A DNA stretch of 64,000 nucleotides from the NCBI RefSeq assembly GCF_029227855.1, contig NZ_CP074356.1; one strand, 5' to 3'. Position numbers and translations under genes: made by a program. The notes under the pieces are model-generated. The model did not search any database. It had not been told where the DNA came from and worked only from the letters and a program-made list of their open reading frames with translations. Positions 27,339-56,454 of this stretch are shown piece by piece. Source of the stretch: Escherichia coli. GTDB taxonomy: Bacteria > Pseudomonadota > Gammaproteobacteria > Enterobacterales > Enterobacteriaceae. Within the stretch, counting starts at the first letter, position 1. Each line of letters opens with the position of its first letter.

Positions 27339-27506
27339 ATTGTTCAAATCACCAGCGAACACCGACATATTTGCAACTCAATATTCACAACAACCTTACA
27401 CTGCGACACTATTTTCGCTATGGTTATGCGTAAGCATTGCTGTTGCTTCGTCACGGCAATATAATGAGAATTATTATCATTAAAAGATGATTTGAGGAGT
27501 AAGTAT

Positions 27507-28259
27507 ATGGCTGTAACTAAGCTGGTTCTGGTTCGTCATGGCGAAAGTCAGTGGAACAAAGAAAACCGTTTCACCGGTTGGTACGACGTGGATCTGTCTG
27601 AGAAAGGCGTAAGCGAAGCAAAAGCAGCAGGTAAGCTGCTGAAAGAGGAAGGTTACAGCTTTGACTTTGCTTACACCTCTGTGCTGAAACGCGCTATTCA
27701 TACCCTGTGGAATGTGCTGGACGAACTGGATCAGGCATGGCTGCCCGTTGAGAAATCCTGGAAACTGAACGAACGTCACTACGGTGCGTTGCAGGGTCTG
27801 AACAAAGCGGAAACCGCTGAAAAGTATGGCGACGAGCAGGTGAAACAATGGCGTCGTGGTTTTGCGGTGACTCCGCCGGAACTGACTAAAGATGATGAGC
27901 GTTATCCGGGTCACGATCCCCGTTACGCGAAACTGAGCGAGAAAGAACTGCCGCTAACGGAAAGCCTGGCGCTGACCATTGACCGCGTGATCCCTTACTG
28001 GAATGAAACTATTCTACCGCGTATGAAGAGCGGTGAGCGCGTCATCATCGCTGCACACGGTAACTCGTTACGTGCGCTGGTGAAATATCTTGATAACATG
28101 AGCGAAGAAGAGATTCTTGAGCTGAATATCCCGACTGGCGTGCCGCTGGTTTATGAGTTTGACGAGAACTTCAAACCGCTGAAACGCTATTATCTGGGTA
28201 ATGCTGACGAGATCGCGGCGAAAGCAGCGGCCGTTGCAAACCAGGGTAAAGCGAAGTAA
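27507..28259 (+). CDS. gpmA: 2,3-bisphosphoglycerate-dependent phosphoglycerate mutase GpmA
   Basis: From the ATG at 27507 with GAGGAG ribosome-binding site: [34 protein letters not shown]... (RHGE motif); a Fur-box-like AT-rich palindrome (aatgagaattattatcatt) lies about 30 bp upstream. Confidence 0.96.
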
Positions 28260-28284
28260 ACGTCATTCGTTTAAAAAATAAATA

Positions 28285-28310
28285 TCCTCCGGCATAGCCG
28301 GAGGTTTTTC
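28285..28310 (+). terminator. Intrinsic terminator after gpmA
   Basis: Hairpin tcctccggc-ata-gccggagg followed by ttttt. Confidence 0.8.
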
Positions 28311-28324
28311 AAATGCGCCTATAA

Positions 28325-29025
28325 GGCTCTCTTACCAGCCGCGCCCTAACAGGCGCACACGATCTGACATTTGCATCCAACTTCGTTACTTACGGCCCGT
28401 AAACGGGCTGCCCGGATAGGGAATCGATAACTGCTCTCCCATTTTATCCTCTTCAAGCTGGTGCTTTATGTAATCCTGTATCTTCGCCGTGTTCTTACCC
28501 ACTGTATCGACGTAGTACCCTCTGCACCAGAACTCCCTGTTCCTGTATTTGAATTTCAAATCACCAAACTGCTCGTAAAGCATCAGACTGCTTTTCCCTT
28601 TCAGATATCCCATAAACCCGGATACGCTCATTTTGGGCGGGATCTCCACAAGCATATGGATATGATCTGCACAGCATTCAGCTTCCAGAATCCGTACGCT
28701 TTTCCACTCACACAGCTTTCTCAAAATACTGCCTATTGCTCTACGCTTCTCTCTGTAGAACACCTGTCTTCGGTATTTTGGCGCAAAAACTATGTGATAT
28801 TTACAGTTCCATCGGGTGTGCGCTAAGCTCTTTTCGTTCCCCATTGGGACCCCCTTTTGATTTCTTGTTTGACACTTGCAGTTGCCAGACCGCAAAGTGT
28901 TTTAACAAATCAAAAGGGGTTTTAATAACTGGCTCAAAGCTGAAAGCTTTCCGGAACCCCCAGCCTAGCTGGGGGTTTTCTGTGCACAATGAGAAAGCCG
29001 ACTGCAAGTGAGTCGGCTTTTTTGT
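28325..29025 (-). mobile_element. IS200-family insertion sequence (IS200/IS605 group); ends approximate
   Basis: Contains a Y1 HuH transposase gene; on the transposase-upstream side there are two strong hairpins characteristic of the IS200 left end (aacccccagc-ctag-gctgggggtt at about 28951-28975 and aagccgactgc-aagt-gagtcggctt plus T-run at about 28994-29025); about 700 bp total, the expected IS200 size. Confidence 0.75.
28386..28844 (-). CDS. tnpA: IS200-type transposase TnpA (Y1 HuH transposase, 152 aa)
   Basis: MGNEKSLAHTRWNCKYHIVFAPKYRRQVFYREKRRAIGSILRKLCEWKSVRILEAECCADHIHMLVEIPPK... with the HxH motif (HIHML) and catalytic-Tyr region; start trimmed from the ORF track to the internal Met. 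Confidence 0.9.
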   Translation of the reverse strand: MGNEKSLAHTRWNCKYHIVFAPKYRRQVFYREKRRAIGSILRKLCEWKSVRILEAECCADHIHMLVEIPPKMSVSGFMGYLKGKSSLMLYEQFGDLKFKYRNREFWCRGYYVDTVGKNTAKIQDYIKHQLEEDKMGEQLSIPYPGSPFTGRK

Positions 29026-29136: not shown

Positions 29137-30189
29137 TTACCCGCGACGCGCTTTTACTGCATTCGCCAGTTGACGTAACAGAGCATCGGTATCTTCCCAG
29201 CCGATGCAGGCATCAGTGATGCTCTTGCCATAGGCCAGCGGTTCCCCACTCTCGAGGCTCTGATTGCCTTCCACCAGATGGCTTTCCACCATCACGCCAA
29301 TAATGGCCTTTTCGCCACCGGCAATCTGCTGGCAAACGTCAGCACAAACATCCATCTGCTTTTTAAATTGTTTTGACGAGTTAGCATGGCTGAAATCGAT
29401 CATCACCTGTGCTGGCAGGCCTGCTTTGTTCAGCCCTTCTTTCACTTCAGCAACGTGCTTCGCGCTGTAGTTAGGCTCTTTACCGCCGCGCAGAATGATA
29501 TGGCAATCGCCGTTACCGCTGGTATTCACAATCGCCGAATGCCCCCATTTCGTTACGGACAGGAAGCAGTGCGGCGCACCGGCGGCATTAATGGCATCGA
29601 TAGCCACTTTAATCGTACCATCAGTGCCATTTTTGAAGCCTACCGGGCAAGAAAGCCCTGATGCCAGTTCGCGGTGCACCTGCGATTCCGTAGTACGTGC
29701 GCCAATTGCGCCCCAGCTCATCAGGTCAGCGAGATACTGCGGGGTGATCATATCGAGAAATTCACCCGCTGCTGGCAAACCGCTGTCGTTAATATCAAGC
29801 AGCAATTTACGGGCAATACGCAGACCGTCGTTGATCTGGAAGCTGTTATCCATATGCGGATCATTAATCAGCCCTTTCCAGCCCACAGTGGTACGCGGCT
29901 TTTCAAAATAGACGCGCATCACGATTTCCAGCTCATCTTGCAGCTCTTCACGCAGCGTCAGCAAGCGAGTGGCATACTCTTTAGCCGCGACAGGATCATG
30001 AATTGAGCACGGACCAATCACCACCAACAGGCGATCATCATTACCTTTCAGGATCTTATGGATCTCTTTTCGGGCATGGGCGACCGTATTCGCGGCATTT
30101 TCAGTAGCGGGGAATTTTTCCAGCAATGCGACAGGAGGAAGTAACTCTTTGATTTCTTTGATGCGTAAATCGTCGTTCTGATAATTCAT
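29137..30189 (-). CDS. aroG: DAHP synthase, Phe-sensitive (AroG)
   Basis: 350 aa ORF MNYQNDDLRIKEIKELLPPVALLEKFPATENAANTVAHARK...; matches AroG. Confidence 0.96.
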   Translation of the reverse strand: MNYQNDDLRIKEIKELLPPVALLEKFPATENAANTVAHARKEIHKILKGNDDRLLVVIGPCSIHDPVAAKEYATRLLTLREELQDELEIVMRVYFEKPRTTVGWKGLINDPHMDNSFQINDGLRIARKLLLDINDSGLPAAGEFLDMITPQYLADLMSWGAIGARTTESQVHRELASGLSCPVGFKNGTDGTIKVAIDAINAAGAPHCFLSVTKWGHSAIVNTSGNGDCHIILRGGKEPNYSAKHVAEVKEGLNKAGLPAQVMIDFSHANSSKQFKKQMDVCADVCQQIAGGEKAIIGVMVESHLVEGNQSLESGEPLAYGKSITDACIGWEDTDALLRQLANAVKARRG

Positions 30190-30504
30190 GTCTGTTCCAG
30201 TGTTGCCATACTTATCTTAGTGAATGCAATACTTCCAATCTATATCTTCCGTCAGAATGTGTAAACGGGGTTTTACACTATGAACGGATTAATCCTGGAA
30301 TTAGCAAGAAAAACGCCAGATTGTCGCGAAAAACGAGATCTCTCCTACAATTTCTAACTGTAACTCCTTTGTTTGTTAATTATTTCAAGATTCTCTGCTG
30401 GATATCTTTGCCTGGCTGAAATCTTAAACCATTGCCTTATATTCACCTGCAAATGCACTGTTGGAAGAGGTTATCCGACATAACGACCATAACAGGAGCA
30501 TCCT

Positions 30505-30885
30505 ATGAAAATGACAAAACTGGCCACACTATTTTTGACTGCCACTCTAAGCCTTGCCAGCGGTGCCACACTGGCTGCCGATAGCGGAGCGCAAAGCAAT
30601 AACGGCCAGGCAAACGCCGCAGCTGATGCGGGCCAGGTAGCCCCTGATGCCCGTGAAAATGTCGCGCCAAATAACGTCGACAATAACGGGGTAAATACCG
30701 GCTCTGGCGGCACAATGCTGCATCCGGATGGTTCTTCAATGAACAATGACGGCATGACCAAAGATGAAGAGCACAAGAACACCATGTGCAAAGATGGTCG
30801 CTGCCCGGATATCAATAAAAAAGTCCAAACCGGTGATGGCATCAACAATGATGTCGATACCAAAACCGACGGTACCACGCAGTAA
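30505..30885 (+). CDS. ybgS: Secreted protein YbgS
   Basis: 126 aa ORF with signal peptide [24 protein letters not shown]; low-complexity Asn/Gly/Asp-rich mature part; matches YbgS. Confidence 0.88.
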
Positions 30886-30998
30886 CCCTGCGAAATAGCC
30901 AATAATGGGAGAGCGGAGTCTCTCCCTTTTAATTTTTCCCTTCTAAAAGCAGTATGATGTCATAAAGTTAAGTGAGAATAATTAAGGGATGACTCGTC

Positions 30999-31940
30999 AT
31001 GGCGCACTCACACTCACACACTTCCTCACACCTGCCAGAAGATAATAATGCTCGTCGCTTGTTGTATGCTTTCGGCGTGACTGCCGGGTTTATGCTCGTA
31101 GAAGTCATTGGTGGTTTTCTTTCCGGTTCTCTGGCATTGCTGGCCGATGCGGGTCATATGTTGACCGATACTGCCGCCCTGCTTTTTGCCCTACTCGCAG
31201 TGCAATTTTCCCGTCGTCCTCCCACCATTCGCCACACTTTCGGTTGGCTAAGATTGACCACGCTCGCGGCGTTTGTGAATGCCATCGCCCTGGTGGTGAT
31301 TACTATTTTGATTGTCTGGGAGGCGATAGAACGCTTCCGCACTCCGCGTCCGGTCGAGGGCGGCATGATGATGGCAATTGCCGTGGCTGGGCTGCTGGCA
31401 AATATACTTTCTTTCTGGTTACTTCATCACGGCAGCGAAGAGAAAAACCTCAACGTGCGAGCAGCGGCACTGCATGTCCTCGGGGACCTGCTGGGTTCGG
31501 TTGGGGCTATTATTGCCGCGTTGATTATTATCTGGACCGGCTGGACACCTGCTGATCCCATTCTCTCAATACTGGTGTCGCTTCTGGTTCTGCGTAGCGC
31601 GTGGCGACTGTTGAAAGATAGCGTGAATGAATTACTTGAAGGTGCACCGGTATCGCTGGATATCGCCGAACTGAAGCGTCGTATGTGCCGGGAAATCCCG
31701 GAAGTCCGCAATGTGCACCATGTACATGTATGGATGGTAGGCGAGAAGCCGGTGATGACGCTGCATGTGCAGGTGATCCCGCCACACGATCACGATGCCT
31801 TGTTAGATCAGATCCAACACTACCTGATGGATCACTATCAGATTGAGCACGCCACTATTCAAATGGAATATCAACCTTGTCATGGGCCAGACTGCCACCT
31901 GAATGAAGGGGGGTCTGGCCATTCACATCATCACCATTAA
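30999..31940 (+). CDS. zitB: Zinc efflux CDF transporter ZitB
   Basis: 313 aa [42 protein letters not shown]... with His-rich termini; matches ZitB. Confidence 0.95.
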
Positions 31941-32656
31941 TGGGACAGCGCGCGTGAACCTCTTTCGCGTGCGCTGTTGATCCACATCCGGCTGCCGTTG
32001 AGGGCAATAAAGGTCAGGATGATGTACTCCAGAGACATGGCGTAAACGCCCTGAAGTGCAAAAATAACGACGCTAATCACGTTAATAATCACCCACAACA
32101 GCCAGTTTTCCACATACTTACGCGTCATCAGAATCATTGCCACGATAGATAACACCATCATGCAGGAATCCCAGAACGGGAAAGCGTCCGGTTGCAGTTC
32201 AGGCATCACAACCTGTAATCCTAATGCTTGCATGATCATGACTGCCACGCGGGTCAAAAATGCAAACACCGGATTGATAAATACCGTCATCAGACCAATC
32301 GAAACAACGCAAACCGCCAACCAGCTTAGCGCCTTCGGCAATGGCAACCAGCGAATTTTCAACTCCGCCTCGTTCTGACTGGTTTGTCGCGACCACGCAT
32401 ACCAACCGTAAATATTCGCGGCAAAGAAAAACACCTGTAATAGCAGGCTGGCATACAGCTGAATCTGAAAGAAAATAATGCCAAACAAGGTGACGTTGAT
32501 CAGGCCAAAGAAGTAGTTGCTGATCTTCTCCAGACTGGCAAGGCCAATACACAGCAACCCGGCGATCGTGCCTACCGCTTCGATCCATGAGAGATCATAA
32601 CCGCCTGCTCCTATTGGTATATGTACCAGGATATTCTGCACACTAAAAAAATCCAT
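31937..32656 (-). CDS. pnuC: Nicotinamide riboside transporter PnuC
   Basis: 239 aa hydrophobic [40 protein letters not shown]...; convergent 4-bp overlap with the zitB stop. Confidence 0.95.
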
Positions 32657-32693
32657 CTTTCCCCCAAAGCGTAACGTTACGCCTTATTATTCG

Positions 32694-33737
32694 TTATCCA
32701 CGTAGTGTAGCCGCAAAATCCAGCATACGATTGAGCGGCACCAGCGCCCTCTCTCGCAGCCTTTCATCAACATGAACCTCGTGATTGCTTCCTTCCTGTT
32801 CTAATGCCTCTGCGATGGCCTGAAGGCCATTCATGGCCATCCACGGACAATGCGCGCAGCTGCGGCAGGTTGCACCCTCACCTGCGGTTGGTGCTTCCAG
32901 TAACTCTTTATCTGGCACCGCCTGCTGCATTTTGTAGAAAATACCCCGATCGGTTGCCACAATAAGCCTCTGATGTGGCAATGTTTTCGCAGCAGCGATC
33001 AGTTGACTGGTGGAACCGACCGCATCCGCCATATCGACAATAGCTTGTGGTGATTCTGGATGCACCAGTATGGCAGCATCCGGGTATTCTTCTTGCAAGC
33101 GGGTTAACGCCTGAGTCTTAAATTCATCATGCACAATGCAGGCACCCTGCCAGCATAAAATGTCTGCGCCCGTCTGTTTTTGCACGTAACGCCCCAGATG
33201 TTTGTCGGGTGCCCAGATGATTTTTTCACCCAAACTATCCAGATGATCAATAAGTTCGACGGCAATGCTTGAAGTTACCACCCAATCTGCCCGCGCTTTT
33301 ACCGCAGCAGAAGTGTTGGCGTAGACGACGACAGTATGATCGGGATGGGCATCGCAAAATGCGTTAAATTCTTCAACAGGGCAGCCGAGATCCAGTGAAC
33401 ATTCAGCCTGAAGTGTCGGCATCAGAATTGTTTTTTCCGGACTGAGAATTTTGGCGGTTTCTCCCATAAATCTCACCCCAGCGACTAACAACGTAGAAGC
33501 GGGATGCTTTGCACCGAAGCGCGCCATTTCCAGAGAATCAGAAATACAGCCACCGGTTTCTTCTGCCAGTTGTTGAATTTCGGGATCGGTATAGTAATGG
33601 GCAACCATCACCGCATTACGTTCTTTTAGCAGACGTTTTATCTTCTCGCGGTAATACGCTTTTTCATCAATGCTTAACGGCGTCGGCTTCGGGGGGAAAG
33701 GATAAATCGCCGTGTCTGGATCAAACATCACGCTCAT
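32694..33737 (-). CDS. nadA: Quinolinate synthase NadA
   Basis: 347 aa [58 protein letters not shown]...; matches NadA. Confidence 0.96.
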
Positions 33738-34169
33738 CTTACCATCTCGTTTTACAGGCTTAACGTTAAAACCGACATGAGCGTAATATTCGCTGTTATC
33801 GGTGTAATTTGTTTTATATGCTAAACAAGATAGTCGAATGGTGGGGAAAAGTCACTCGAATTACGTATGAGATGCCGAATGCCACACTTTGCGTCTTATT
33901 TCTCCGACGTAAAGTTGTTTACGCAGCAAACGCGGAGTATGTCATCTGGGTTAAGAATTGAAATTGAGAGATGCCTGAATAGCAAAAAAGCGCCTTTAGG
34001 GCGCTTTTTTACATTGGTGGGTCGTGCAGGATGACTCGCTTCGCTCGCCCTACGGGCCGTCGCCGCGAGCGGCTCCGTTATTTCGCTGCGCTCAACTCGA
34101 ACCTGCTGCAGGTTCGAATCTTTGAGTATCGCAGATAGTAAAAAAGCGCCTTTAGGGCGCTTTTTTACA

Positions 34170-34245
34170 TTGGTGGGTCGTGCAGGATTCGAACCTGCGA
34201 CCAATTGATTAAAAGTCAACTGCTCTACCAACTGAGCTAACGACC
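34170..34245 (-). tRNA. lysQ: tRNA-Lys (anticodon UUU)
   Basis: Reverse complement is GGGTCGTTAGCTCAGTTGGTAGAGCAGTTGACTTTTAATCAATTGGTCGCAGGTTCGAATCCTGCACGACCCACCA; gene name by position in the K-12 order. Confidence 0.93.
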
Positions 34246-34278
34246 CCTTGCGGGATTATGCTGCTTTAATCATTCAGG

Positions 34279-34354
34279 ATGGTGGGTCGTGCAGGATTCG
34301 AACCTGCGACCAATTGATTAAAAGTCAACTGCTCTACCAACTGAGCTAACGACC
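34279..34354 (-). tRNA. lysZ: tRNA-Lys (UUU)
   Basis: Identical 76-nt tRNA-Lys sequence on the minus strand. Confidence 0.93.
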
Positions 34355-34500
34355 CATACGGGTGTTACCTGAAAGATTTCTACTCGGAACCAATCTTTAA
34401 AATTGGTGGGTCGTGCAGGATGACTCGCTTCGCTCGCCCTACGGGCCGTTGCTGGCGCAACGTTATCCTTCACGCTTAACATCTGAGTTTGATGTTAAAA

Positions 34501-34576
34501 TTGGTGGGTCGTGCAGGATTCGAACCTGCGACCAATTGATTAAAAGTCAACTGCTCTACCAACTGAGCTAACGACC
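34501..34576 (-). tRNA. lysY: tRNA-Lys (UUU)
   Basis: Identical 76-nt tRNA-Lys sequence on the minus strand. Confidence 0.93.
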
Positions 34577-34579
34577 CGA

Positions 34580-34655
34580 GTGGTGGGTGATGACGGGATC
34601 GAACCGCCGACCCCCTCCTTGTAAGGGAGGTGCTCTCCCAGCTGAGCTAATCACC
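34580..34655 (-). tRNA. valZ: tRNA-Val (anticodon UAC)
   Basis: Reverse complement is GGGTGATTAGCTCAGCTGGGAGAGCACCTCCCTTACAAGGAGGGGGTCGGCGGTTCGATCCCGTCATCACCCACCA. Confidence 0.93.
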
Positions 34656-34706
34656 CGATACTGCGCTGGATACTACAAACTACTTCCACCGAACCCACCG
34701 TAATTA

Positions 34707-34782
34707 GTGGTGGGTCGTGCAGGATTCGAACCTGCGACCAATTGATTAAAAGTCAACTGCTCTACCAACTGAGCTAACGACC
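34707..34782 (-). tRNA. lysW: tRNA-Lys (UUU)
   Basis: Identical 76-nt tRNA-Lys sequence on the minus strand. Confidence 0.93.
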
Positions 34783-34784
34783 CG

Positions 34785-34860
34785 GTGGTGGGTGATGACG
34801 GGATCGAACCGCCGACCCCCTCCTTGTAAGGGAGGTGCTCTCCCAGCTGAGCTAATCACC
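34785..34860 (-). tRNA. valT: tRNA-Val (UAC)
   Basis: Identical 76-nt tRNA-Val sequence on the minus strand. Confidence 0.93.
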
Positions 34861-34995
34861 CGATACTACGCTGGATACTACAACTAACTAGGTTAGTGGT
34901 GGGTCGTGCAGGATGACTCGACTTCGTCTCGCCCTTCGGGCCGTTGCTGACGCAACGTTATCCTTCACGTTTTACTACCGCTTCCACCTTAGCGA

Positions 34996-35071
34996 TTGGT
35001 GGGTCGTGCAGGATTCGAACCTGCGACCAATTGATTAAAAGTCAACTGCTCTACCAACTGAGCTAACGACC
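34996..35071 (-). tRNA. lysT: tRNA-Lys (UUU), first gene of the operon
   Basis: Identical 76-nt tRNA-Lys sequence on the minus strand. Confidence 0.93.
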
Positions 35072-35236
35072 CACTTTTTCGTTGCTTTCGGTTTGTTTGA
35101 TATCCCGTGGCAACGGCGGCATATATTACTGATTTCAGACTTGAGCGCAACAAAAATTTCGATGTAGATCACTCAACTGCTTATGATTCGCACGACACGA
35201 CCAGAAATAATGCGACTTCTGGTCGTGTGTTATGCA

Positions 35237-36028
35237 TTACATCGCGTTCAGACGTTTTTGTGCCTGTTTAGCGCCATCAGTACCAGGGTATTTACTGATA
35301 ACCTGCTGGTATACGGCTTTCGCTTTTGCGGTGTCACCTTTGTCCTGCATGATGACGCCGACTTTAAACATCGCATCTGCAGCCTTTGGTGACTTCGGAT
35401 AGTTTTTTACTACCGAAGCAAAATAGTACGCCGCATCATCTTTTTTACCCTTGTTGTAGTTTAACTGACCCAGCCAATAATTGGCGTTTGGCAGGTAAGT
35501 TGAATCAGGGTAATTTTTGATGAAATTCTGAAATGCCACCATTGCGTCATCCTGGCGGGATTTATCCTGCACCAGCGCAATTGCTGCATTGTAATCCGTG
35601 TTTGCATCGCCGCTTTTCACCGGCGCGCCAGCATTCGCAGTACCAGCATCAGCTGTCGGCGTCGTTGATGCCGCCGCACCGCTTTGATCACCGCTGGTTG
35701 ATTGCGCCGCTGCACCACCGCTGCTGAGGCTGTCGATCTGCAACAGGATCTGCTTTTGCCGCTCCACGACCTGATTCAGTTGATACTGATTTTCCTGAAT
35801 CTGGCCACGCAGGGAATCAATATCGGATTGATTATCAGAGAGTTGTTGCTGGAGTTGGGTTAAAAGCTGGCTGTGAGCATTTGAAATACGCTCAAGTTGA
35901 GTGACGCGGTCTTCGACCGAGCCTGAGCCGACACTACTGATTGGTGCCTGAGCAAAAGCGGCCCAGGGGGCCGCTATACCAACCAGTAACGACAGACTCA
36001 ATAGTTGATGTCTGAAGTTACTGCTCAT
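35237..36028 (-). CDS. cpoB: Cell-division coordinator CpoB (YbgF), periplasmic TPR protein
   Basis: 263 aa ORF with signal peptide MSSNFRHQLLSLSLLVGIAAPWAAFA and a coiled-coil/TPR C-terminus; matches CpoB. Confidence 0.95.
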   Translation of the reverse strand: MSSNFRHQLLSLSLLVGIAAPWAAFAQAPISSVGSGSVEDRVTQLERISNAHSQLLTQLQQQLSDNQSDIDSLRGQIQENQYQLNQVVERQKQILLQIDSLSSGGAAAQSTSGDQSGAAASTTPTADAGTANAGAPVKSGDANTDYNAAIALVQDKSRQDDAMVAFQNFIKNYPDSTYLPNANYWLGQLNYNKGKKDDAAYYFASVVKNYPKSPKAADAMFKVGVIMQDKGDTAKAKAVYQQVISKYPGTDGAKQAQKRLNAM

Positions 36029-36037
36029 GCAATTCTC

Positions 36038-36583
<546 letters not shown>

Positions 36584-36593
36584 TTAATTATTA

Positions 36594-37886
36594 TCACAGA
36601 TACGGCGACCAGGCAGGGAATTTGACCTGTCCATCAGTTGCCGGAAGACGCGCTTTGAAACGCCCATCTGTAGAAACCAAATTCAGCACGGATCCCATCC
36701 CCTGAGAAGAGCTGTAGATTACCATAGTGCCGTTAGGTGCCAGACTTGGCGTTTCATCCAGGAACGTGGACGACAGAACTTGTACGCCTCCCGTTGCCAG
36801 ATCTTGTTTGGCAATGTGCTGCTGCCCACCATTGGAGCTGACCATTACCATAAATTTACCGTCGCTGCTGACATCCGCATCCTGGTTCTGCGAACCTTCC
36901 CAGGTAATACGTTGTGGCGCACCGCCGTTGATATTCACTTTATAAACCTGTGGACGACCGGCCTGGTCAGAAGTAAATGCCAGGTTCTGGCTGTCCGGGA
37001 ACCAGGTCGGTTCGGTATTGTTACTGCGACCATCCGTCACCTGGCGGATCTGACCAGAAGCCAAATCCATTACGTACAGGTTCAGACTACCGGTTTTCGA
37101 CAAGGCGAATGCCAGTTTGCTGCCGTCTGGCGAGAATGCAGGTGCACCGTTGTGACGCGGGAATGAAGCCACCTGACGTACAGCGCCATTTGCCAGCGTT
37201 TGGATGACCAGCGCGGAACGACCGCTTTCGAAGGTCACATAAGCCAGTTTAGAACCGTCTGGTGACCACGCCGGAGACATCAGCGGCTGCGGTGAACGGT
37301 GAACGACAAACTGGTTGTAACCGTCATAGTCAGATACGCGCAGTTCATACGGGAACTGACCGCCGTTGGTCTGAACAACGTAGGCAATACGGGTACGGAA
37401 CGCACCTTTAATGCCGGTCAGTTTTTCAAACACTTCATCACTGGCGGTATGACCAGCATAACGCAGCCACTGCTTGTTCACTTTGTACGAGTTCTGAGCA
37501 AGTACAGTACCCGGTGCGCCGCCAGTGTCAACAAGTTGATAAGCAACATTGTAAGAACCATCCGGATTCGGAGTGACCTGACCGACAACTACAGCGTCAA
37601 TGCCCAGTGCGGACCATGCAGCTGGTTGTACTTCCTGCGCACTACCCGGCTGCTGTGGCAGACGAGCGCGATCTAACGGATTAAATTTACCGCTGTTACG
37701 CAAGTCAGCAGCAACGATGCCGCCAATATCTTCAGGTGCCGCACCAGGACCCGCCCACTGGAAAGGAACAACACCAATAGGACGACCGGAATCTACACCG
37801 CTGTCGATCACAATGCGGACTTCAGCATGCAGAACTGATGCCCACAGTATGAGAAAACCAAATGCTACTCGTAATGCCTGCTTCAT
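36594..37886 (-). CDS. tolB: Tol-Pal system periplasmic protein TolB
   Basis: [21 protein letters not shown] signal peptide followed by a beta-propeller domain; start taken at the second Met of the ORF-track protein. Confidence 0.95.
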
Positions 37887-38018
37887 CATATCTCCCTTAT
37901 CTGGACCGATGGCCCACGATAATTTAGCAGAATGTTAACAAACTAAAATACACAAAACTACCAGAACCCCGTGGCAACCGGTGCCTGATGTTGACCGTCG
38001 GAACAGTCAACATCGCGA

Positions 38019-39329
38019 TTACGGTTTGAAGTCCAATGGCGCGTTTTTGAACACTTCATATACTGCCTGGCTTGGTGGTTTCGGGATCTTCGCAAGTTTA
38101 GCTGCTGCCAACGCAGCCTGACAAAGTGCGGGATCGCCACCTTCAGGTTTGATATCCAGTAACATACCATCGGGTGCCAGTTTTATGCGCAGCGTACAGG
38201 TTTTGCCTGCATAGGACGATGCGTCATAGAACTTACTTTCGATAGCAGATTTAATCTGCCCGGCATAGTTATTGATATCGGCCCCTGATGCGCCATTGTT
38301 TTTAGTATTACCACTCCCGGCAGGCGAAGCATTGTTCCCTTTCGCCCCTCCCCCCGTTTTCGGTGCATTCTTACCAGAGCTTAGCTCACCGAAAATATCA
38401 TCTGCCTCTGCGGCAGCTTTTGCTGCAGCGGCTTTTTCAGCTGCTGCTTTTGCAGCTGCTGCTTTTGCAGCTGCCGCTTTTTTGTCTGCGGCGGCTTTTT
38501 CTGCCGCTGCTTTCTTATCAGCTGCTGCCTTTTCAGCAGCTGCCTTTTCAGCAGCTGCCTTTTCAGCAGCCGCTTTTTCTGCTGCTTTTTTGTCGGCTGC
38601 AGCTTTCTCTGCTGCCACTTTCTTATCAGCTGCAGCCTTTTCAGCAGCCGCTTTCTTCTCAGCTTCTGCCTTGGCTTTTTCAGCAGCTTCAGTTGCCGCT
38701 TTCTTTCTTGCTTCAGCTGCAGCTGCTTCTGCCGCTTCCGCTTTCTTCTTCAGTGCCGCAGCGGCTGCCTCGGCTTTTTTCTGCGCTTCGGCTGCGGCTT
38801 TGGCGGCTTCTGCTTCTGCTTTTTTCTTCGCGTCTGCAGCCGCTTTCTTCGCAGCTTCTTCCGCAGCTTTAGCATCCGCTTCAGCCTTCGCTTTAGCATC
38901 TTCCGCCGCTTTCGCTGCCGCTTCTTCCGCTTGCTTCTGCTTTAACTCGGCCTGTTTTGCGGCTTCTTCAGCCTGCTTTTTCTGTTCCTGAGCAGCTAAC
39001 CGCTCTTTCTCAAGTTGCTTCAGGCGTTCCTGTTCAGCCGCTTGTTTCTCACGCAGTTCTTCAGCAGCCTGCTGTTCCTTCATCTTGCGCTGCTCATCAG
39101 AACGCTTCGCGCTTGATTCCTGGCTTTGCATGCGTTTGTACTGCTCAACTACCGCACCTGAATCAACCATGACAGCGTCGATGGATGAACCACCGCCGCC
39201 TCCGGCTGAAGCTTCTATATTCTCATCGAACGAACTCCAGATCAGCGCCGCAAATAAGATGACATGCAGCACTGCTGAAATAATTATCGCCCGCTTGAGC
39301 TTGTCGTTTTGTTCGGTTGCCTTTGACAC
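38019..39329 (-). CDS. tolA: Tol-Pal system protein TolA
   Basis: 436 aa ORF MSKATEQNDKLKRAIIISAVLHVILFAALIW... with a long Ala/Lys/Glu-rich helical domain II and a conserved C-terminal domain; matches TolA. Confidence 0.95.
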   Translation of the reverse strand: MSKATEQNDKLKRAIIISAVLHVILFAALIWSSFDENIEASAGGGGGSSIDAVMVDSGAVVEQYKRMQSQESSAKRSDEQRKMKEQQAAEELREKQAAEQERLKQLEKERLAAQEQKKQAEEAAKQAELKQKQAEEAAAKAAEDAKAKAEADAKAAEEAAKKAAADAKKKAEAEAAKAAAEAQKKAEAAAAALKKKAEAAEAAAAEARKKAATEAAEKAKAEAEKKAAAEKAAADKKVAAEKAAADKKAAEKAAAEKAAAEKAAAEKAAADKKAAAEKAAADKKAAAAKAAAAKAAAEKAAAAKAAAEADDIFGELSSGKNAPKTGGGAKGNNASPAGSGNTKNNGASGADINNYAGQIKSAIESKFYDASSYAGKTCTLRIKLAPDGMLLDIKPEGGDPALCQAALAAAKLAKIPKPPSQAVYEVFKNAPLDFKP

Positions 39330-39393
39330 TCTCGGTTTCCAAAAACTGTTCGCCTGTTACCCGCTCTCTTTCAAGCAAGGGAAACGCAGATGT

Positions 39394-39822
39394 TTAGATA
39401 GGCTGCGTCATTAAACCAACCGATTTCACACCCGCACTATGTAACAAGTTCAGTGCTTTAATTATTTCATCGTAAGGCACATCTTTTGCGCCACCGATCA
39501 GAAAGACCGTTTTCGGGTTGGCCTTGAAACGGCTGGACACTTCCGCCACCACCTGCTCTGGTGGTAAACGCTCCAGGCGATCTTTCTCAACCACCACGGT
39601 GTACTGACCAATACCAGACACTTCAACAATCACTGGCGGATTATCGTTACTGCTAACCGCCTGTGATTCAGTAGCGTCTGGCAGATCGACCTCCACGCTC
39701 TGGGTGATGATGGGCGCTGTCGCCATAAAGATCAGCAACAGCACCAGCAGTACGTCCAGCAACGGTACAATGTTGATTTCGGACTTGAGATCGCGACGAC
39801 CTCGTCCACGCGCTCTGGCCAT
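39394..39822 (-). CDS. tolR: Tol-Pal system protein TolR
   Basis: 142 aa ORF MARARGRGRRDLKSEINIVPLLDVLLVLLLIFMATAPIITQ...; matches TolR. Confidence 0.96.
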   Translation of the reverse strand: MARARGRGRRDLKSEINIVPLLDVLLVLLLIFMATAPIITQSVEVDLPDATESQAVSSNDNPPVIVEVSGIGQYTVVVEKDRLERLPPEQVVAEVSSRFKANPKTVFLIGGAKDVPYDEIIKALNLLHSAGVKSVGLMTQPI

Positions 39823-39825
39823 GGC

Positions 39826-40919
<1,094 letters not shown>

Positions 40920-41068
40920 TTTACATCCCGGTAATGCAACAAAAGTTAGAGCTTTTAAACGCTGCTACTATACGCGCGCGATTGAGGTTTGGGAATGAGG
41001 GCAAGTTAAGGGAGCGTAAAAATTTATGGGCCTGGAGCGGCCCATAATTTTTTAAAGAGAATTCTGAT

Positions 41069-41362
41069 TTAAAAGAAGAAGAAAATCAGCCCGACAATGA
41101 GAACAATATCAGCAAGCAATGGGCAAAAAATCCCTTGCCAAAGAACCTTCTGCGGACGAAAGCCCACGCCGTGAATCACACCAGCACAGACGGCCCACAT
41201 CAGCAATAAACCATGCCAGATTTCCAGTTCACTGGTCTTCGCGGCGAAACGTGATGGGTCCCAAAACATACATCCGGCTAACAGAAGCGCCATCACGAAG
41301 GAAAGCGCCCGCAGGGGGCGCTTGTCCATTACCGCATACAAGGTTGCGATAATCTTACTCAT
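41069..41362 (-). CDS. ybgE: Inner-membrane protein YbgE (cyd operon)
   Basis: 97 aa hydrophobic ORF MSKIIATLYAVMDKRPLRALSFVMALLLAGCMFW... Confidence 0.9.
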   Translation of the reverse strand: MSKIIATLYAVMDKRPLRALSFVMALLLAGCMFWDPSRFAAKTSELEIWHGLLLMWAVCAGVIHGVGFRPQKVLWQGIFCPLLADIVLIVGLIFFFF

Positions 41363-41475
41363 CAGATGTCTTCTTGACCGGCTTTGCCTGATTCGACGTG
41401 CTCAAGCGCCAGCGCGGTGATTACCCCAAACGAACAGGCAAGAAGCGTTCCCAGAATCCATGCGAAATACCACAT
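41362..41475 (-). CDS. cydX: CydX (YbgT), 37 aa subunit of cytochrome bd-I oxidase
   Basis: My own translation of the minus strand gives MWYFAWILGTLLACSFGVITALALEHVESGKAGQEDI; stop overlaps the ybgE start (ATGA); below the ORF-track size floor. Confidence 0.9.
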   Translation of the reverse strand: MWYFAWILGTLLACSFGVITALALEHVESGKAGQEDI

Positions 41476-41489
41476 TTTTAGCTCCTTAC

Positions 41490-42629
41490 TTAGTACAGAG
41501 AGTGGGTGTTACGTTCAATATCTTCTTTGGTGATACGACCGAACATTTTCCAGTAACACCAGGCGGTGTAGAGCAGAATGATCGGTACCAGAACCACCGC
41601 AACCCAGGTCATGACGTTAAGCGTCAGCTGGCTGGAAGTTGCATCCCACATTGTCAGACTTGCGTTCATCATGGTGCTGGACGGCATCACAAACGGGAAC
41701 ATTGCGATACCGGCAGTCAGGATGATGCAGGCCAGCGTCAGGGAGGAGAACACAAACGCCCACGCGGCTTTATCCATACGTGCAGTCAGGATGGTCAGCA
41801 GCGGCAGAACCACACCCAGTGCCGGAATAGCCCACAGAATTGGCGTGTTGTTGAAGTTTACCAGCCATGCGCCAGCTTCACGAACCACTTCTTTATTCAG
41901 TGGGTTAGAGGCTGCGTAATGGTCCATTGTCGATTTCACGACATAACCATCGATACCGTACATCACCCATACGCCAGCCAGTGCGAAACAGACCAGTGTC
42001 ACCAGTGCCGCCACCTGAGCCGTTGCACGGGTACGCAGGTGCAGTTCGCCCACGGTACGCATTTGCAGATAGGTTGCGCCCTGAGTAATGATCATCCCTA
42101 CGCTCACCACGCCTGCCAGCAGGCCGAACGGGTTAAGCAGCTGGAAGAAGTTACCGGTGTAGTACAGACGCAGATATTCATCAACGTTGAACGGTACGCC
42201 CTGCAACAGGTTACCGAACGCTACACCAATCACCAGCGGCGGAACGAAGCTACCAATGAAGATGCCCCAGTCCCACATGTTACGCCAGCGGGTTTCTTCA
42301 ATCTTGGAGCGGTAGTCAAAACCGACCGGACGGAAGAACAAAGACGCCAGCACGAGGATCATCGCCACATAGAAGCCGGAGAACGCAGCGGCATAGACCA
42401 TCGGCCAGGCAGCAAAGAGTGCGCCGCCTGCGGTGATCAGCCAAACCTGGTTACCGTCCCAGTGTGGTGCAATGGAGTTAATCATAATTCGACGCTCGGT
42501 GTCGTTACGACCGAGGAAACGGGTGAGCATGCCCACCCCCATGTCGAAACCGTCAGTGACTGCAAAACCAATCAGCAGAACGCCAACCAGCAGCCACCAG
42601 ATAAAACGCAATACTTCATAATCGATCAT
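41490..42629 (-). CDS. cydB: Cytochrome bd-I ubiquinol oxidase subunit II (CydB)
   Basis: 379 aa ORF MIDYEVLRFIWWLLVGVLLIGFAVTDGFDMGVGMLTRFLG...; matches CydB. Confidence 0.96.
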   Translation of the reverse strand: MIDYEVLRFIWWLLVGVLLIGFAVTDGFDMGVGMLTRFLGRNDTERRIMINSIAPHWDGNQVWLITAGGALFAAWPMVYAAAFSGFYVAMILVLASLFFRPVGFDYRSKIEETRWRNMWDWGIFIGSFVPPLVIGVAFGNLLQGVPFNVDEYLRLYYTGNFFQLLNPFGLLAGVVSVGMIITQGATYLQMRTVGELHLRTRATAQVAALVTLVCFALAGVWVMYGIDGYVVKSTMDHYAASNPLNKEVVREAGAWLVNFNNTPILWAIPALGVVLPLLTILTARMDKAAWAFVFSSLTLACIILTAGIAMFPFVMPSSTMMNASLTMWDATSSQLTLNVMTWVAVVLVPIILLYTAWCYWKMFGRITKEDIERNTHSLY

Positions 42630-42644
42630 TTGACGACTCCTGTC

Positions 42645-44213
42645 TTAGCGTGCCGGCTGAGTAGTCGTGGAAGACTGCTCAAAGTGATAGCGACCGGTTT
42701 TCAGGCTGCTTGGGCCGAGGCGTGCAAACTTGAACATTAAGAACAATTCTGCCACCAGGAACAGGGTATACAGGCCGCAAATCAGCACCATTGAGAAGAT
42801 GAGATCGCCTGCGGTCAGTGACGAGTTCGCCACAGCTGTCGGCAGCACTTCACCGATAGCCCACGGTTGGCGGCCATATTCAGCCACAAACCAGCCCGCT
42901 TCTACAGCAATCCACGGCAGCGGAATACCGTACAGCGCGGCGCGCAGCAGCCATTTTTTCTCGCCAATGCGGTTGCGGATGACACTCCAGAAAGAGAGCG
43001 CGATGATTGCCAGCAGTAGGAAGCCACACGCCACCATGATACGGAACGCGAAGTACAGCGGCGCTACACGCGGAATGGAGTCTTTGGTTGCCTGTTGAAT
43101 CTGCGCTTCAGTCGCATCAGCCACGTTTGGCGTATAGCGTTTCAGCAGCAGACCGTAACCGAGGTCTTTCTTCATGCTATTGAACTGGTCACGAACCGCC
43201 TGGTCGGTAGAACCAGAACGCAGTTGCTCGAGCAGAGAGTACGCCTTCATCCCGTTACGAATGCGTTCTTCATGCTGCACCATCAGTTCTTTCAGGCCGA
43301 TAACTGGAGTATCCACGGAACGCGTTGCAATGATGCCCAGCGCGTAAGGGATCTGGATCGCAAATTTGTTCGTCTCCTCTTCCTGATCAGGAATGCCGAA
43401 CAGAGTAAAGGCAGCAGGCGCAGGTTGCGTTTCCCACTCGGCTTCAATAGCAGCCAGTTTGGTTTTCTGCACGTCGCCCATTTCGTAACCAGATTCATCA
43501 CCCAGAACAATAACAGACAGAACGGCAGCCATACCGAAGCTGGCAGCGATAGCAAAGGAGCGTTTAGCGAAGGCGAAGTCACGACCTTTCAGCATATACC
43601 ATGCGCTGATACCGAGGATGAACATCGCGCCAGTCACATAACCAGACGCTACAGTGTGAACGAATTTCACCTGAGCAACCGGGTTAAGCACCAGCTCGGA
43701 GAAGCTCACCATCTCCATACGCATAGTTTCAAAGTTGAAATCGGACGCGATTGGGTTTTGCATCCAGCCGTTCGCAACCAGAATCCACAGTGCGGACAGG
43801 TTTGAACCGAGCGCCACCAGCCAGGTGACACACATATGCTGAACTTTACCCAGACGATCCCAACCGAAGAAGAACAGACCTACAAAGGTGGATTCGAGGA
43901 AGAAGGCCATCAGACCTTCGATTGCCAGCGGCGCACCGAAGATATCCCCTACATAGTGGGAATAGTAAGACCAGTTAGTCCCGAACTGGAACTCCATGGT
44001 CAGACCGGTAGCCACACCCAGAGCGAAGTTGATACCAAACAACTTGCCCCAGAACTTGGTCATATCTTTATAAATCTGTTTGCCGGAAAGGACGTAGACC
44101 GTTTCCATAATGGCCAGCAGGAACGCCATACCGAGCGTCAGTGGCACAAAAAGGAAGTGGTACATCGCGGTCAAGGCAAACTGTAAGCGCGACAGTTCGA
44201 CTATATCTAACAT
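42645..44213 (-). CDS. cydA: Cytochrome bd-I ubiquinol oxidase subunit I (CydA)
   Basis: [41 protein letters not shown]... (start taken at the second Met of the ORF-track protein); matches CydA. Confidence 0.96.
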
Positions 44214-44550
44214 CATGACTCCTTGCTCATCGCATGAAGACTCCGAGAGTGAACCCCGTTAGAAAGGGTCACACGCATGCCCCAATACAAAATTATTTGC
44301 TCGCCTCTATCGTTGCCATTTCATCAAAAGAGGAAAAGACAATGATAAAAAAGTTACAAATATGTTAATGAATAAACCAAATTGATCCCGTAATTATATT
44401 ACGCCGCAAAATCCTTACAATAAACATGTTTTTATTGAGCAAATTTGCATTTTTCGACAGTGATCAATTTATAGCGAAATTGTCACGATCTCACCAATTT
44501 GATCTACGACAATTTATCGTGTTTTGCAGATTTTTTTCAAGAATTAAAAA

Positions 44551-44564
44551 TTGATTTATATCAA
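44551..44564. promoter_or_regulatory. FNR-type box (TTGAT-N4-ATCAA) in the cydAB upstream regulatory region
   Basis: Perfect match ttgatttatatcaa about 340 bp upstream of the cydA start, within a long AT-rich leader; cydAB is a known FNR/ArcA-controlled operon. Confidence 0.65.
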
Positions 44565-45018
44565 AACCAACCAAATATGTTAATTGTGTATAAACCATAG
44601 ATCATTGGTGATTTTATTGTTAATTTATTGTGAAATATTTATGCAACACAATTATTACAATGAAAAGGTATAGATAAAAAACCAGTGTTTTATTTAACAG
44701 AACCGCCTTATCCACTTTTTATAATACCAATTGATTAGATTAGCCAATTTGTTGCTATTTTACATAACATATTTTTATCAAAGTTAATTGATTGTTGCGT
44801 TTATGAGCACCGGCCGTAAGCCCGTTATGTTATTGTTTCATTAGTAATAATCACTTAAATGTATCGATGAAACAGGTATGACTTAGCGGGAGTGATTGTT
44901 TCTGAGTGAACAGAGACCACTTTCGCCTGATAAATGAAAAATGAGCGATTTTTGCAAGTTAGTTTTTCTATAGCCGAGTACGCTCAGCGCCTCGCTTGAT
45001 TACAATGAGGTTGCTGCT

Positions 45019-45963
45019 ATGAGTCCTGATAATATCAGTTCTGCTGTCAATCGCTTCTCAGGTTGGCCATCTAATGATCCTCTAAAAACAGATAAAGAAT
45101 CAATGACATCACCCATGACTGTGCAGGTAATAAAGATGATTGCCGCCATCCTTGACCCACATCGGATAGTCGTTGGAATCGATACACTTTATACAACGCA
45201 GCGCGAAACATTTACCTCAGAGAGTCAACAGCTCATTGAATCAGCATTGCAAACACTTCATGTGATGAATTTAAATAACCTGGAAACAAATCTCGATGAG
45301 GAAGGTCACTATCTGGCTTTTGGATATAACGTTGACACTCCTGACAGAATAACCGTTTCTGCTTATAATGAAAAAAAGCCTGGCTGCTATGGCCAATGTC
45401 TTTTAATACAGGATGACGAAACAGACTTATTTAACCTGATAAAAGTTAAAATTTTTGAAGCCAGGCATAATTATGTCGCTCAATTGATGAGCGATCCGGA
45501 ATTTATGTTCAAATTTAGTTATAGCGCTCAACAAAATAGATTAGAACCTCATCTTCTGGTTCCCACTTATTTCCCTCTAAAAACAAACGAACCGGTTACG
45601 CAAGAGGATGTACTGTTACTTTATCGTTTCTTTAAAATGGATGGTGATTTTAATATATTAACATCAGATGAATACATGAGTATCATGACACCTCTAATGA
45701 AGTGTGAGCGTAGCATCCACGACCACAACAGGTATGTGACGGGCAAAGATACCCTTCTTCTGGACTATCCTCCTTCTGGTAACCAGATATATTTCCATAT
45801 TTTTCCTGACGAATCAGCAACACTAGTCCTTTATTTTTCAAACAATGACATTGAATGTTTCGTCTTTGAAAGAGATATTCCGAGCCAGTATCGCTTTTTC
45901 AAAATGTTTACCAATCTGGCACTGGTTATTGATCAGTTAACCGATGCCAATCAAATACTTTAA
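45019..45963 (+). CDS. Hypothetical protein, 314 aa, AT-rich accessory gene; no family recognised
   Basis: A long open frame in DNA that is markedly AT-rich (where chance ORFs of this length are unlikely); polar Ser/Thr/Pro-rich N-terminus (MSPDNISSAVNRFSGWPSNDPLKTDKESMTSP), no signal peptide or transmembrane segment evident. Confidence 0.6.
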   Translation: MSPDNISSAVNRFSGWPSNDPLKTDKESMTSPMTVQVIKMIAAILDPHRIVVGIDTLYTTQRETFTSESQQLIESALQTLHVMNLNNLETNLDEEGHYLAFGYNVDTPDRITVSAYNEKKPGCYGQCLLIQDDETDLFNLIKVKIFEARHNYVAQLMSDPEFMFKFSYSAQQNRLEPHLLVPTYFPLKTNEPVTQEDVLLLYRFFKMDGDFNILTSDEYMSIMTPLMKCERSIHDHNRYVTGKDTLLLDYPPSGNQIYFHIFPDESATLVLYFSNNDIECFVFERDIPSQYRFFKMFTNLALVIDQLTDANQIL

Positions 45964-46043
45964 TTTTTATATATTCCCTGTGGCAAATATTGCTAAACAA
46001 TGCCCGGGGATTAATTTTTATTACTCACGGAAAGATTTAAATA

Positions 46044-46466
46044 ATGATCCCATCTCAAATCTCTTTCAACACCCTTCCTGTCAATGCAACATACGCTTCA
46101 GAGACAACAGTTGACACACAAAAATTCTCTGACATCCTCTACTCAGCGGGGTGTTCCCTAAAGGATCTGGCTTATTTGAGCAGATGTCTGGCATCAATAC
46201 ATCCGACTATCGCCAAAAACATTTATGAAACAGAAAATCTCAGCGATCAAAAATTACTACATATTGATTGCCGTAGTACAAATGAAATCAAGATAAATAT
46301 CTTTTTTGGTCGACAACGAGAAGGATTAATTGAAATTAGTTCTGACACAGTCATTTTTTCGATACTGTCTTCATTGATTGACTCCACCATTTCTAAATTT
46401 CAACACCAAAACCCCGTTAACGGTTCTGTAAATCCTGACCTATTGTATGAGGATTATACTGATTAA
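46044..46466 (+). CDS. Hypothetical protein, 140 aa, AT-rich accessory gene; no family recognised
   Basis: ORF 81 bp downstream of the previous gene on the same strand; predominantly acidic, Ser/Thr-rich N-terminus (MIPSQISFNTLPVNATYASETTVDTQKF). Confidence 0.5.
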   Translation: MIPSQISFNTLPVNATYASETTVDTQKFSDILYSAGCSLKDLAYLSRCLASIHPTIAKNIYETENLSDQKLLHIDCRSTNEIKINIFFGRQREGLIEISSDTVIFSILSSLIDSTISKFQHQNPVNGSVNPDLLYEDYTD

Positions 46467-47013
46467 ATCCCTCCTGTCGCGAAAAATGGCCTGCGTTATT
46501 GCCAGACGTAATAAAACTTTTGATTAACGTTTCTCGTACTGGTAGCACCCTCATGTACTTTTCTTTTTTACGAAAAATCAAAAGAGCTAACAAAGGTCAT
46601 AATTCGCATGAATCATTAATTATTTGTTATTTTCAACATTATTTTTACATTAAGCAGAGATGAATTGCAGTGAAATTCGACTTAACTTTTATGAAATGCA
46701 TTTACTCATGGCTAAAGCCACGTCACAAAAATGCAAATTAGAAGTTGATCACAATTATCTCAATACATCAAATCAAGTTAATTTTAAAAATTTAACATTC
46801 ATGACATCAGTTGACATAACACACTGAATTAAAATGAGAATTTGAAAACACACTTTAAACAATCATTTCCCGAAAGACATTTTGAAAATAGATCAATTGC
46901 AACATTACGGTCAGATAAAGACACTCCTGTGATATTAAACCTGTGCCGTTATGAACGGCCATAAATACGACGTGTGTAACTTATTTTACTCTCTGTCTTA
47001 CAAAGGATTACCC

Positions 47014-47463
47014 ATGAAGAAAGCAACACTTGTGATTGGCGTTATTGGCGCGGACTGCCATGCAGTAGGCAATAAAGTTCTGGACCGCGTTTTTAGCAAC
47101 CATGGCTTCAGAGTCATTAATCTGGGCGTAATGGTCAGCCAGGACGAATATATTGATGCTGCCATTGAAACTGGTGCTGACGCGATTGTCGTCTCCTCTA
47201 TCTATGGGCATGGCGATATCGACTGTCTGGACATGCGCGAACGCTGCATCGAGCGTGGACTGGGGGACATCCTGCTCTATGTGGGCGGTAACCTGGTGGT
47301 CGGAAAACATGACTTCGCTGACGTGGAAACCAAATTCAAAGAGATGGGATTTGATCGCGTCTTTGCCCCAAGTCATGACTTAGAAGATGTTTGTCAGCTG
47401 ATGGCCCACGATATCAACCAACGTCATGACGTTGATACTCGTATTCTTGAAGAGGCAATCTGA
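47014..47463 (+). CDS. Glutamate mutase S (sigma) component, B12-binding subunit (methylaspartate mutase small subunit)
   Basis: From the ATG at 47014 (AAGGAT ribosome-binding site): [62 protein letters not shown]...; the DxHxxG cobalamin-binding motif (DCHAVG) and strong similarity to clostridial GlmS/MutS as I remember it. The ORF-track upstream extension is rejected. Confidence 0.88.
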
Positions 47464-48851: not shown

Positions 48852-48869
48852 CAATTAAGGCTGCAATCA

Positions 48870-51556: not shown

Positions 51557-51559
51557 CAA

Positions 51560-52930: not shown

Positions 52931-53244
52931 AACAGTCAATTGTCTCACTGGCGCAAGTCATTCGTTCGAAAAATGCCGGACCTTACGAACTGGTTTTAGA
53001 TATTTTATTTAAAACGAAAGAAAACTATGAGCGAGTTAAATCATCAGGGCAATTAACCCCAGAACTGATTGCGCGCTTATATCATGTTGAACCTGACTTT
53101 ATTCACCGTATTGTCTGGTTTGATCCTTCTAACGCAGTAAAAATCGTCATGCCACGAGATATTATCTCCGGGAATGTAGGTGACAATGATGTCTATGGTG
53201 CACAGCAACATGCACCTTTATTAAATATGAGTTTCGATTTGTAA
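52927..53244 (+). CDS. Conserved hypothetical protein, 105 aa (possibly DUF4387-like partner of the preceding gene; unverified)
   Basis: ORF MKQSIVSLAQVIRSKNAGPYELVLDILFKTKENYERVKSSGQLTPELIARLYH...; start codon overlaps the stop of the upstream gene (ATGA), implying translational coupling. Confidence 0.55.
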   Translation: MKQSIVSLAQVIRSKNAGPYELVLDILFKTKENYERVKSSGQLTPELIARLYHVEPDFIHRIVWFDPSNAVKIVMPRDIISGNVGDNDVYGAQQHAPLLNMSFDL

Positions 53245-53404
53245 AAATCCGAATACTTTTAGCCAACTGACATCCCGTCACTTATTGCAGTTCAACACTT
53301 CAGCTATTTGTAAGGTTGTAATAGCAGGTAGATGCCTGAATCTCTATTCAGGCATCTACTTCTCCTGATTCTGATTTATCGCCGTGCACCTGATGGAGGA
53401 AAAA

Positions 53405-54685: not shown

Positions 54686-54792
54686 GGGGGATCTTAAGCA
54701 ATCAGAAGCCAATGACTACGCATTTTTATAAGCCGGATCATGAAGTTAGACGGCAATTAAGTAAAACTAACGTTTAAGGTGAAAAGTGAAAT

Positions 54793-56445: not shown

Positions 56446-56454
56446 GGAAAATGA

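Follow-up and report, generated by a model that had tools for sequence, protein, structure and literature searches.

The window analysed here, a stretch of 64,000 nucleotides from an Escherichia coli genome, carries on its minus strand a 436-codon reading frame whose middle part is built from short repeats. From the sequence alone this gene had been read as tolA with a repeat domain longer than that of strain K-12. The locus thus raises the question whether the repeat tract is a natural length variant, in which way its additional units were generated, and whether they could be of relevance for the function of the protein.

The identification of the gene was confirmed. The protein was recognised by two TolA equivalog models of NCBIfam, NF007065 (559 bits compared with a cutoff of 213, E 4e-168) and TIGR02794 (312 bits compared with a cutoff of 59), its C-terminal domain was found by Pfam, and the gene lies within the tol-pal operon, flanked by tolR (39394..39822) and tolB (36594..37889). 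Beyond reasonable doubt, the reading frame is tolA. In the alignment with the K-12 protein the sequence of domain III is identical, and the motif residues S18, H22, L29, and S33 are likewise the same; an SHLS motif (Ser-His-Leu-Ser) has been described for the N-terminal transmembrane helix (Williams-Jones et al. 2023, PMC10666116). Residues 3-34 form a helix in the AF2 model of the window protein. The plus-strand open reading frames 38272..38991 and 38363..38872 were rejected as genes, since they are no more than low-complexity mirror images of the repeat in translation (Ala/Phe/Ser or Leu/Gln). The features of the locus are compiled in Table 1.

Downstream of cpoB, at 34171-35072, the window contains seven tRNA genes, five for tRNA-Lys(UUU) and two for tRNA-Val(UAC), which follow the order of the K-12 cluster lysT-valT-lysW-valZ-lysY-lysZ-lysQ. 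The cluster comprises self-similar blocks of about 180 nt, and the last two Lys genes are separated, start to start, by 109 nt in the window compared with 208 nt in K-12.

Table 1. Position of the tolA features in the window
Feature	Position	Strand	Evidence
Operon ybgC, tolQ, tolR, tolA, tolB, pal, cpoB	35237..40919	-	Open reading frames; order as in K-12 b0736-b0742 and in JNEC-KY178
tolA coding sequence, GTG start, 436 aa	38019..39329	-	Open reading frame list, NCBIfam, collinear with K-12 b0739
Domain I, N-terminal membrane-anchor helix (aa 1-34)	39228..39329	-	Sequence reading, AF2 model
Domain II upstream of the tract, more degenerate Ala/Lys/Glu repeats (aa 130-222)	38664..38942	-	Weak Tandem Repeats Finder arrays
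Missense A143E relative to K-12 (gene nt 428)	38902..38902	-	Alignment; also in JNEC-KY178
Domain II tandem-repeat tract, 16 in-frame units of 15 or 18 nt (aa 223-306)	38412..38663	-	Unit parse, Tandem Repeats Finder
Missense A238V relative to K-12, within unit 3 (gene nt 713)	38617..38617	-	Alignment; also in JNEC-KY178
Unit 7 (AEKAA) three times, GCTGAAAAGGCAGCT twice, then GCTGAAAAGGCAGCA; K-12 plus two copies	38523..38567	-	Unit parse
Unit 11 (AAKAA) twice, exact copies, GCTGCAAAAGCAGCA twice; K-12 plus one copy	38442..38471	-	Unit parse
Domain III, TolA C-terminal domain (aa 340-434)	38028..38312	-	Pfam PF06519, E 2e-38

Tandem Repeats Finder reported arrays with periods of 15, 30, and 33 at 38408-38664 and weaker arrays with a period of 12/24 at 38771-38942. 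For the unit parse we used a scheme that recovers the 13 published units of strain MG1655 and in which the stop-codon primer of Zhou et al. falls in unit 3. The plus-strand 18-mer GCAGCTGCCTTTTCAGCA was found at 15-nt spacing within 38521-38568, with two exact matches (at 38536 and 38551) and one match carrying a single mismatch; with up to three mismatches five matches were counted compared with 0.08 expected from shuffled sequences. The true unit is 15 nt long, or 18 nt in the case of the DKK and EKK units, and the 18-mer corresponds to one unit plus 3 nt. The tandem near-identical units described for domain II in the sequence-only reading were therefore recovered by the arrays, the parse, and the 18-mer matches above the shuffled background. 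The range proposed there, 38400-38900, holds for the conserved tract, whereas its remainder up to 38900 consists of the more degenerate Ala/Lys/Glu repeats. The units upstream of unit 1 have previously been described as less conserved (Zhou, Michiels and Aertsen, PLoS One 2012, PMC3477136).

The tolA gene of K-12 MG1655 comprises 1266 nt and encodes 421 amino acids, which agrees with the length of about 421 residues given for it in the sequence-only reading. In protein and DNA alignments the window allele departs in length from K-12 only through two insertions in the domain II tract, both in frame: one of 30 nt, consisting of two exact copies of the 15-nt AEKAA unit (unit 7), and one of 15 nt, consisting of one exact copy of the 15-nt AAKAA unit (unit 11). 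Parsed in the same way, the window allele has 16 units and the K-12 allele 13. Consequently, the gain of 15 amino acids is due to three extra whole units; the product is indeed longer than K-12 TolA by repeat number, and the window shares neither the length nor the repeat count of the reference. At the protein level A143E and A238V are the sole substitutions. Units 12 and 13 and everything downstream of them are intact in the window, the extra copy of unit 11 being situated directly upstream of this stretch.

As a control for chance periodicity, the synonymous codons of the tract were shuffled 1000 times while the protein was kept fixed. In the window tract the identity at a lag of 15 was 0.743 compared with 0.691 +/- 0.016 in the shuffles, a value that none of the 1000 reached, and the longest exact self-match at this lag was 32 nt, which was reached by 3 of 1000. 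The excess over the periodicity imposed by the peptide stems from this 32-nt match. In the same test the K-12 tract had no excess of periodicity (z 1.1), and its longest exact self-match at lag 15 was 7 nt. Most of the 15-nt periodicity of the DNA thus follows from the repeated peptide. Each of the three extra units matches its neighbour exactly at the nucleotide level, whereas synonymous differences separate all of the older units. It follows that the extra units are recent duplications of whole units.

The closest complete genome, that of JNEC-KY178, allowed a near-clonal comparison. Across window positions 14288-63000 (48 kb) seven substitutions set it apart from the window, in addition to an insertion of about 710 nt present in the window and a gap of 15 nt. 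BLAST places this gap at 38438-38452; it amounts to a single copy of tolA unit 11 and is the sole indel within 34 kb. Both genomes have A143E, A238V, and the triple unit 7; the window has one copy of unit 11 more. In the next-closest genomes (99.1% identity over 18 kb) unit 11 is already doubled, so that the difference may have arisen either by a gain in the window or by a loss in JNEC-KY178. This is direct evidence that one unit was gained or lost within the time of a handful of SNPs.

The insertion of about 710 nt is situated at 28278-28987 between gpmA (27492..28259, plus strand) and aroG and is absent from JNEC-KY178 and K-12. It contains an open reading frame (28386..28895, minus strand) that matches the Pfam family Y1_Tnp, an IS200-like transposase, with E 5e-38, and small hairpins are found near both of its ends (28281-28309 and 28955-28977); it looks like a recent insertion of the IS200 family. 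A second segment, of about 15.5 kb (about 44585-60127), lies between the region upstream of cydA and mngB; K-12 lacks a counterpart at this position. For the corresponding stretch the annotation of JNEC-KY178 lists two hypothetical proteins, methylaspartate mutase (glmS, glmL, and subunit E), methylaspartate ammonia-lyase, an AtuA-family protein, a DUF4387 protein, a dicarboxylate symporter, a class I fumarate hydratase, cobO, a LysR regulator, and RtcB. Window positions 30000-48000 are covered to at least 80% in one piece by only 74 of 5,426 complete genomes.

A tolA match was obtained in 5,425 of the 5,426 complete E. coli genomes. The best match, the 1296-nt gene of JNEC-KY178, is only 98.9% identical, and the exact window allele is therefore absent from this set. 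In an exact-product gene index neither the product of the window allele nor that of JNEC-KY178 returned a block, the K-12 allele serving as positive control with 78,780 blocks. The length of the gene was surveyed in 60 evenly spaced records from the 5,425 matching genomes, 59 of which were full length. The K-12 length of 1266 nt was found in 41 of these 59 (69%), followed by 1311 nt (5 records), 1251 nt (3), 1299 and 1185 nt (2 each), and 1215, 1233, 1272, 1281, 1290, and 1296 nt (1 each). A second search with a synthetic query carrying a doubled tract added lengths of 1293, 1302, and 1314 nt. The two halves of this query align to overlapping parts of the subject, so that the ranking is not strictly by length, and the finding that none of its top 60 matches exceeds 1314 nt is not a census. 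Overall the genes range from 1185 to 1314 nt, and the longest (1314 nt) has 16 units, too.

Thirteen alleles encoding 394-437 amino acids were parsed. All of them have a constant N-terminal part of 129 and a constant C-terminal part of 127 amino acids, and all length differences reside in domain II. Gains and losses of whole units account for the other parsed alleles, which have 11 to 16 units: units 3-4 are deleted in MB06172 (11 units), unit 11 is lost in B19 (12 units) and duplicated in KFu014 and 2021CK-01784 (14 units), units 1-2 are duplicated in B19429 (15 units), and a 45-nt block of three units in S10EC and a 48-nt block in NH-21 are duplicated (16 units each). In three alleles the change lies in, or reaches into, the part of the domain upstream of this tract. 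ATCC 8739 has 6 additional nt (two extra Ala) in the upstream degenerate repeats and outside the 13-unit tract, MN06021 has 24 additional nt (AKAKAEAD duplicated) in the same degenerate part, and the 394-aa allele of O157:H7 has an 81-nt deletion extending upstream of unit 1. Differences in the length of tolA hence also occur outside the 13 units.

The S10EC-type allele (WP_000030659.1) has the same 436 amino acids in length and the same 16 units as the window allele. It arose, however, from the block duplication mentioned above and not from single-unit duplications, and in a gapped DNA alignment it is 94.4% identical to the window allele; the length is common to both, the history is separate. 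Its product returned 11,179 blocks in the gene index, compared with none for the window allele. Hence 436 amino acids is a common length of TolA, whereas the arrangement of units in the window is rare.

That the repeat number of tolA varies from strain to strain, as the sequence-only reading had stated, is visible in the complete genomes and is documented in the literature; this variation was already known and had been tested experimentally in 2012. For MG1655 tolA, 13 imperfect units were described, each 15 or 18 bp long (PMC3477136). A survey of 234 isolates (Zhou, Vanoirbeek, Aertsen, Michiels, Res Microbiol 2012), as it is quoted in PMC3477136, gave 8-16 units with 13 units in 66%. Within this quoted range the 16 units of the window represent the upper limit. 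In an engineered series with 2, 6, 8, 13, 26, and 39 units all variants complemented a tolA deletion at least partly (PMC3477136). Contractions occurred with a frequency of up to 6.9e-5; they required RecA, were more frequent in uvrD, and did not depend on MutS, and no expansion was found among 150 colonies screened (PMC3477136). The term expansion-prone, which had been applied to the tract, thus goes beyond the experimental record: the natural alleles prove that expansions occur, but the laboratory work measured contractions. The rearrangements never involved units 12 and 13, which may reflect the binding of YbgF/CpoB by the last 31 residues of domain II (PMC3477136).

From these observations we consider it very probable that the tolA gene of the window carries the known intragenic tandem repeat in a naturally occurring copy-number variant. 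Three whole units have been added through duplication of neighbouring units, unit 7 twice more and unit 11 once. Judged from the published experiments, the duplications were presumably generated by misalignment of neighbouring units, mainly in the course of RecA-dependent unequal recombination and possibly by replication slippage. Neither domains I and III nor the final two units, which are part of the CpoB-binding stretch, have been altered by these events.

At the protein level the alpha helix of domain II is expected to be longer by 15 residues. This would correspond to about 22 Angstrom for a straight helix at 1.5 Angstrom per residue, or to about half of this per arm if the domain forms a hairpin. 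Domain II has been modelled as a hairpin of about 220 Angstrom in a periplasm of 250-300 Angstrom (Webby et al. 2022, PMC8928145). Its structure and rigidity, more than its identity, were reported to determine the stabilisation of the outer membrane, and force transduction requires a structured domain II (PMC10666116). We modelled the window and K-12 proteins with AF2 using an alignment of 13 E. coli alleles only (mean pLDDT about 68, pTM 0.25). With this shallow alignment a helix was predicted across the whole tract including the extra units (pLDDT about 70-79). The two models disagree on whether domain II has a break, with helices at residues 57-215 and 226-316 in the window protein and a single helix at 61-283 in K-12. 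Because of this disagreement and of the low scores, the models were used for the helicity of the tract only and not for its geometry. The phenotypic effect of 16 compared with 13 units is probably small. The published work on 2-39 units predicts no more than a slightly higher deoxycholate tolerance together with a somewhat reduced sensitivity to filamentous phage.

We considered alternatives concerning the meaning of the three extra units. First, the polymorphism could be neutral, i.e., the repeat number would drift within the tolerated range of 8-16 units and the extra units would be without phenotypic consequence. Every variant of the 2- to 39-unit series fully restored tolerance to SDS and to high salt, and under salt plus acid, where 6-13 units are favoured, the variants with 6, 8, and 13 units behaved alike (PMC3477136). 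Neutrality would also be in line with the several architectures that arrive at 15 or 16 units, with the great abundance of one 436-aa allele (11,179 blocks against 78,780 for K-12), and with a change that concerns only 15 of about 260 residues of domain II. Deoxycholate tolerance, however, climbs monotonically with the number of units across four orders of magnitude, and every variant with a number other than 13 was less sensitive to phage fd (PMC3477136). The dominance of 13 units (66-69%) furthermore hints at stabilising selection, although population structure could also yield such a dominance. Taken together, we would give neutrality slightly less than an even chance.

Second, the tract could be a contingency (bet-hedging) locus at which reversible changes in unit number tune the length of TolA to pressure by bile, osmotic stress, acid, phage, or colicin; the window allele would then be an adaptive expansion. 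Zhou et al. proposed such a role from the opposing stress optima and from the frequency of contraction (PMC3477136). The one-unit difference between two genomes that are just 7 SNPs apart in 48 kb is consistent with this proposal, as are the gains and losses of unit 11 in several backgrounds. On the other hand, in-frame units do not permit on/off switching, and expansions were not obtained in the laboratory (PMC3477136). Moreover, the units of K-12 are all unique at synonymous sites and their DNA identity is no higher than imposed by the peptide, which argues against a constant turnover in the majority allele. We regard this possibility as rather unlikely. Frame-shifting phase variation was rejected: the units have 15 or 18 nt, all observed lengths are multiples of three, and the frame is intact in the 13 parsed alleles.

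A further-reaching version of this proposal would be that the three exact, young copies render the 16-unit allele considerably more unstable than the majority allele with 13 units, all unique at synonymous sites, and that the one-unit difference to JNEC-KY178 records an ongoing, possibly in-host, tuning of TolA length (e.g., to bile) within one clone. We judge this to be improbable; if true, it would be the natural counterpart of the expansions that were never captured in the laboratory.

Finally, an artefact by which the extra units, or at least the unit distinguishing the window from JNEC-KY178, result from mis-assembled repeats might be suspected from the repetitive nature of the tract and from the lack of other records of the exact allele (5,426 complete genomes, exact-product index), but it is very improbable, and an assembly error in either genome as the cause of the one-unit difference is unlikely: the two genomes differ by precisely one 15-nt unit, in frame and unlike an error of the homopolymer type, the perfect arrays of just 30 and 45 nt should be spanned by ordinary sequencing reads, the triple unit 7 was found independently in the complete genome of JNEC-KY178, unit 11 is doubled in further complete genomes as well (KFu014, 2021CK-01784), and the reading frame and its flanks are intact.

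The reading as a natural copy-number allele is mainly a confirmation of what was known about tolA. What is added is the one-unit difference between near-clonal genomes, the young exact copies, and the rarity of the arrangement. The length of domain II is one of the few natural parameters for the reach of the proton-motive-force-driven Tol motor to the outer membrane. Since the repeat number modulates bile-salt tolerance and sensitivity to filamentous phage, tests of length against function can conveniently draw on alleles from either end of the natural range. The tract is also a source of length homoplasy and of differences in allele calling in gene-by-gene typing, and short-read assemblies need to be checked at this position. 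In Salmonella, a different species, a difference in the repeat number of TolA domain II between serovars Typhi and Typhimurium has reportedly been linked to detergent or bile resistance (by Lahiri et al. in Microbiology, 2011).

The closest known system is the polymorphism described by Zhou et al. in 2012. The gene, the tract, the 15- or 18-nt units, the variation by whole units, and the untouched units 12 and 13 are all as in the window. Particular to the window allele is the arrangement of a threefold unit 7 and a twofold unit 11 on a background of A143E and A238V, absent from the 5,426 complete genomes and the exact-product index, which is a difference at the level of the allele and not of the kind. 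Classical simple-sequence contingency loci switch on and off by changes in frame or promoter spacing, a behaviour that the tolA gene of the window does not share. With respect to architecture, domain II of TonB, which is made of Glu-Pro and Lys-Pro repeats, is likewise a repetitive periplasm-spanning spacer that joins an SHLS-motif anchor to a C-terminal domain binding the outer-membrane partner. The TonB spacer is a polyproline II helix, whereas that of TolA is an alpha helix, and the two have no sequence similarity; they are nevertheless partly interchangeable (PMC10666116).
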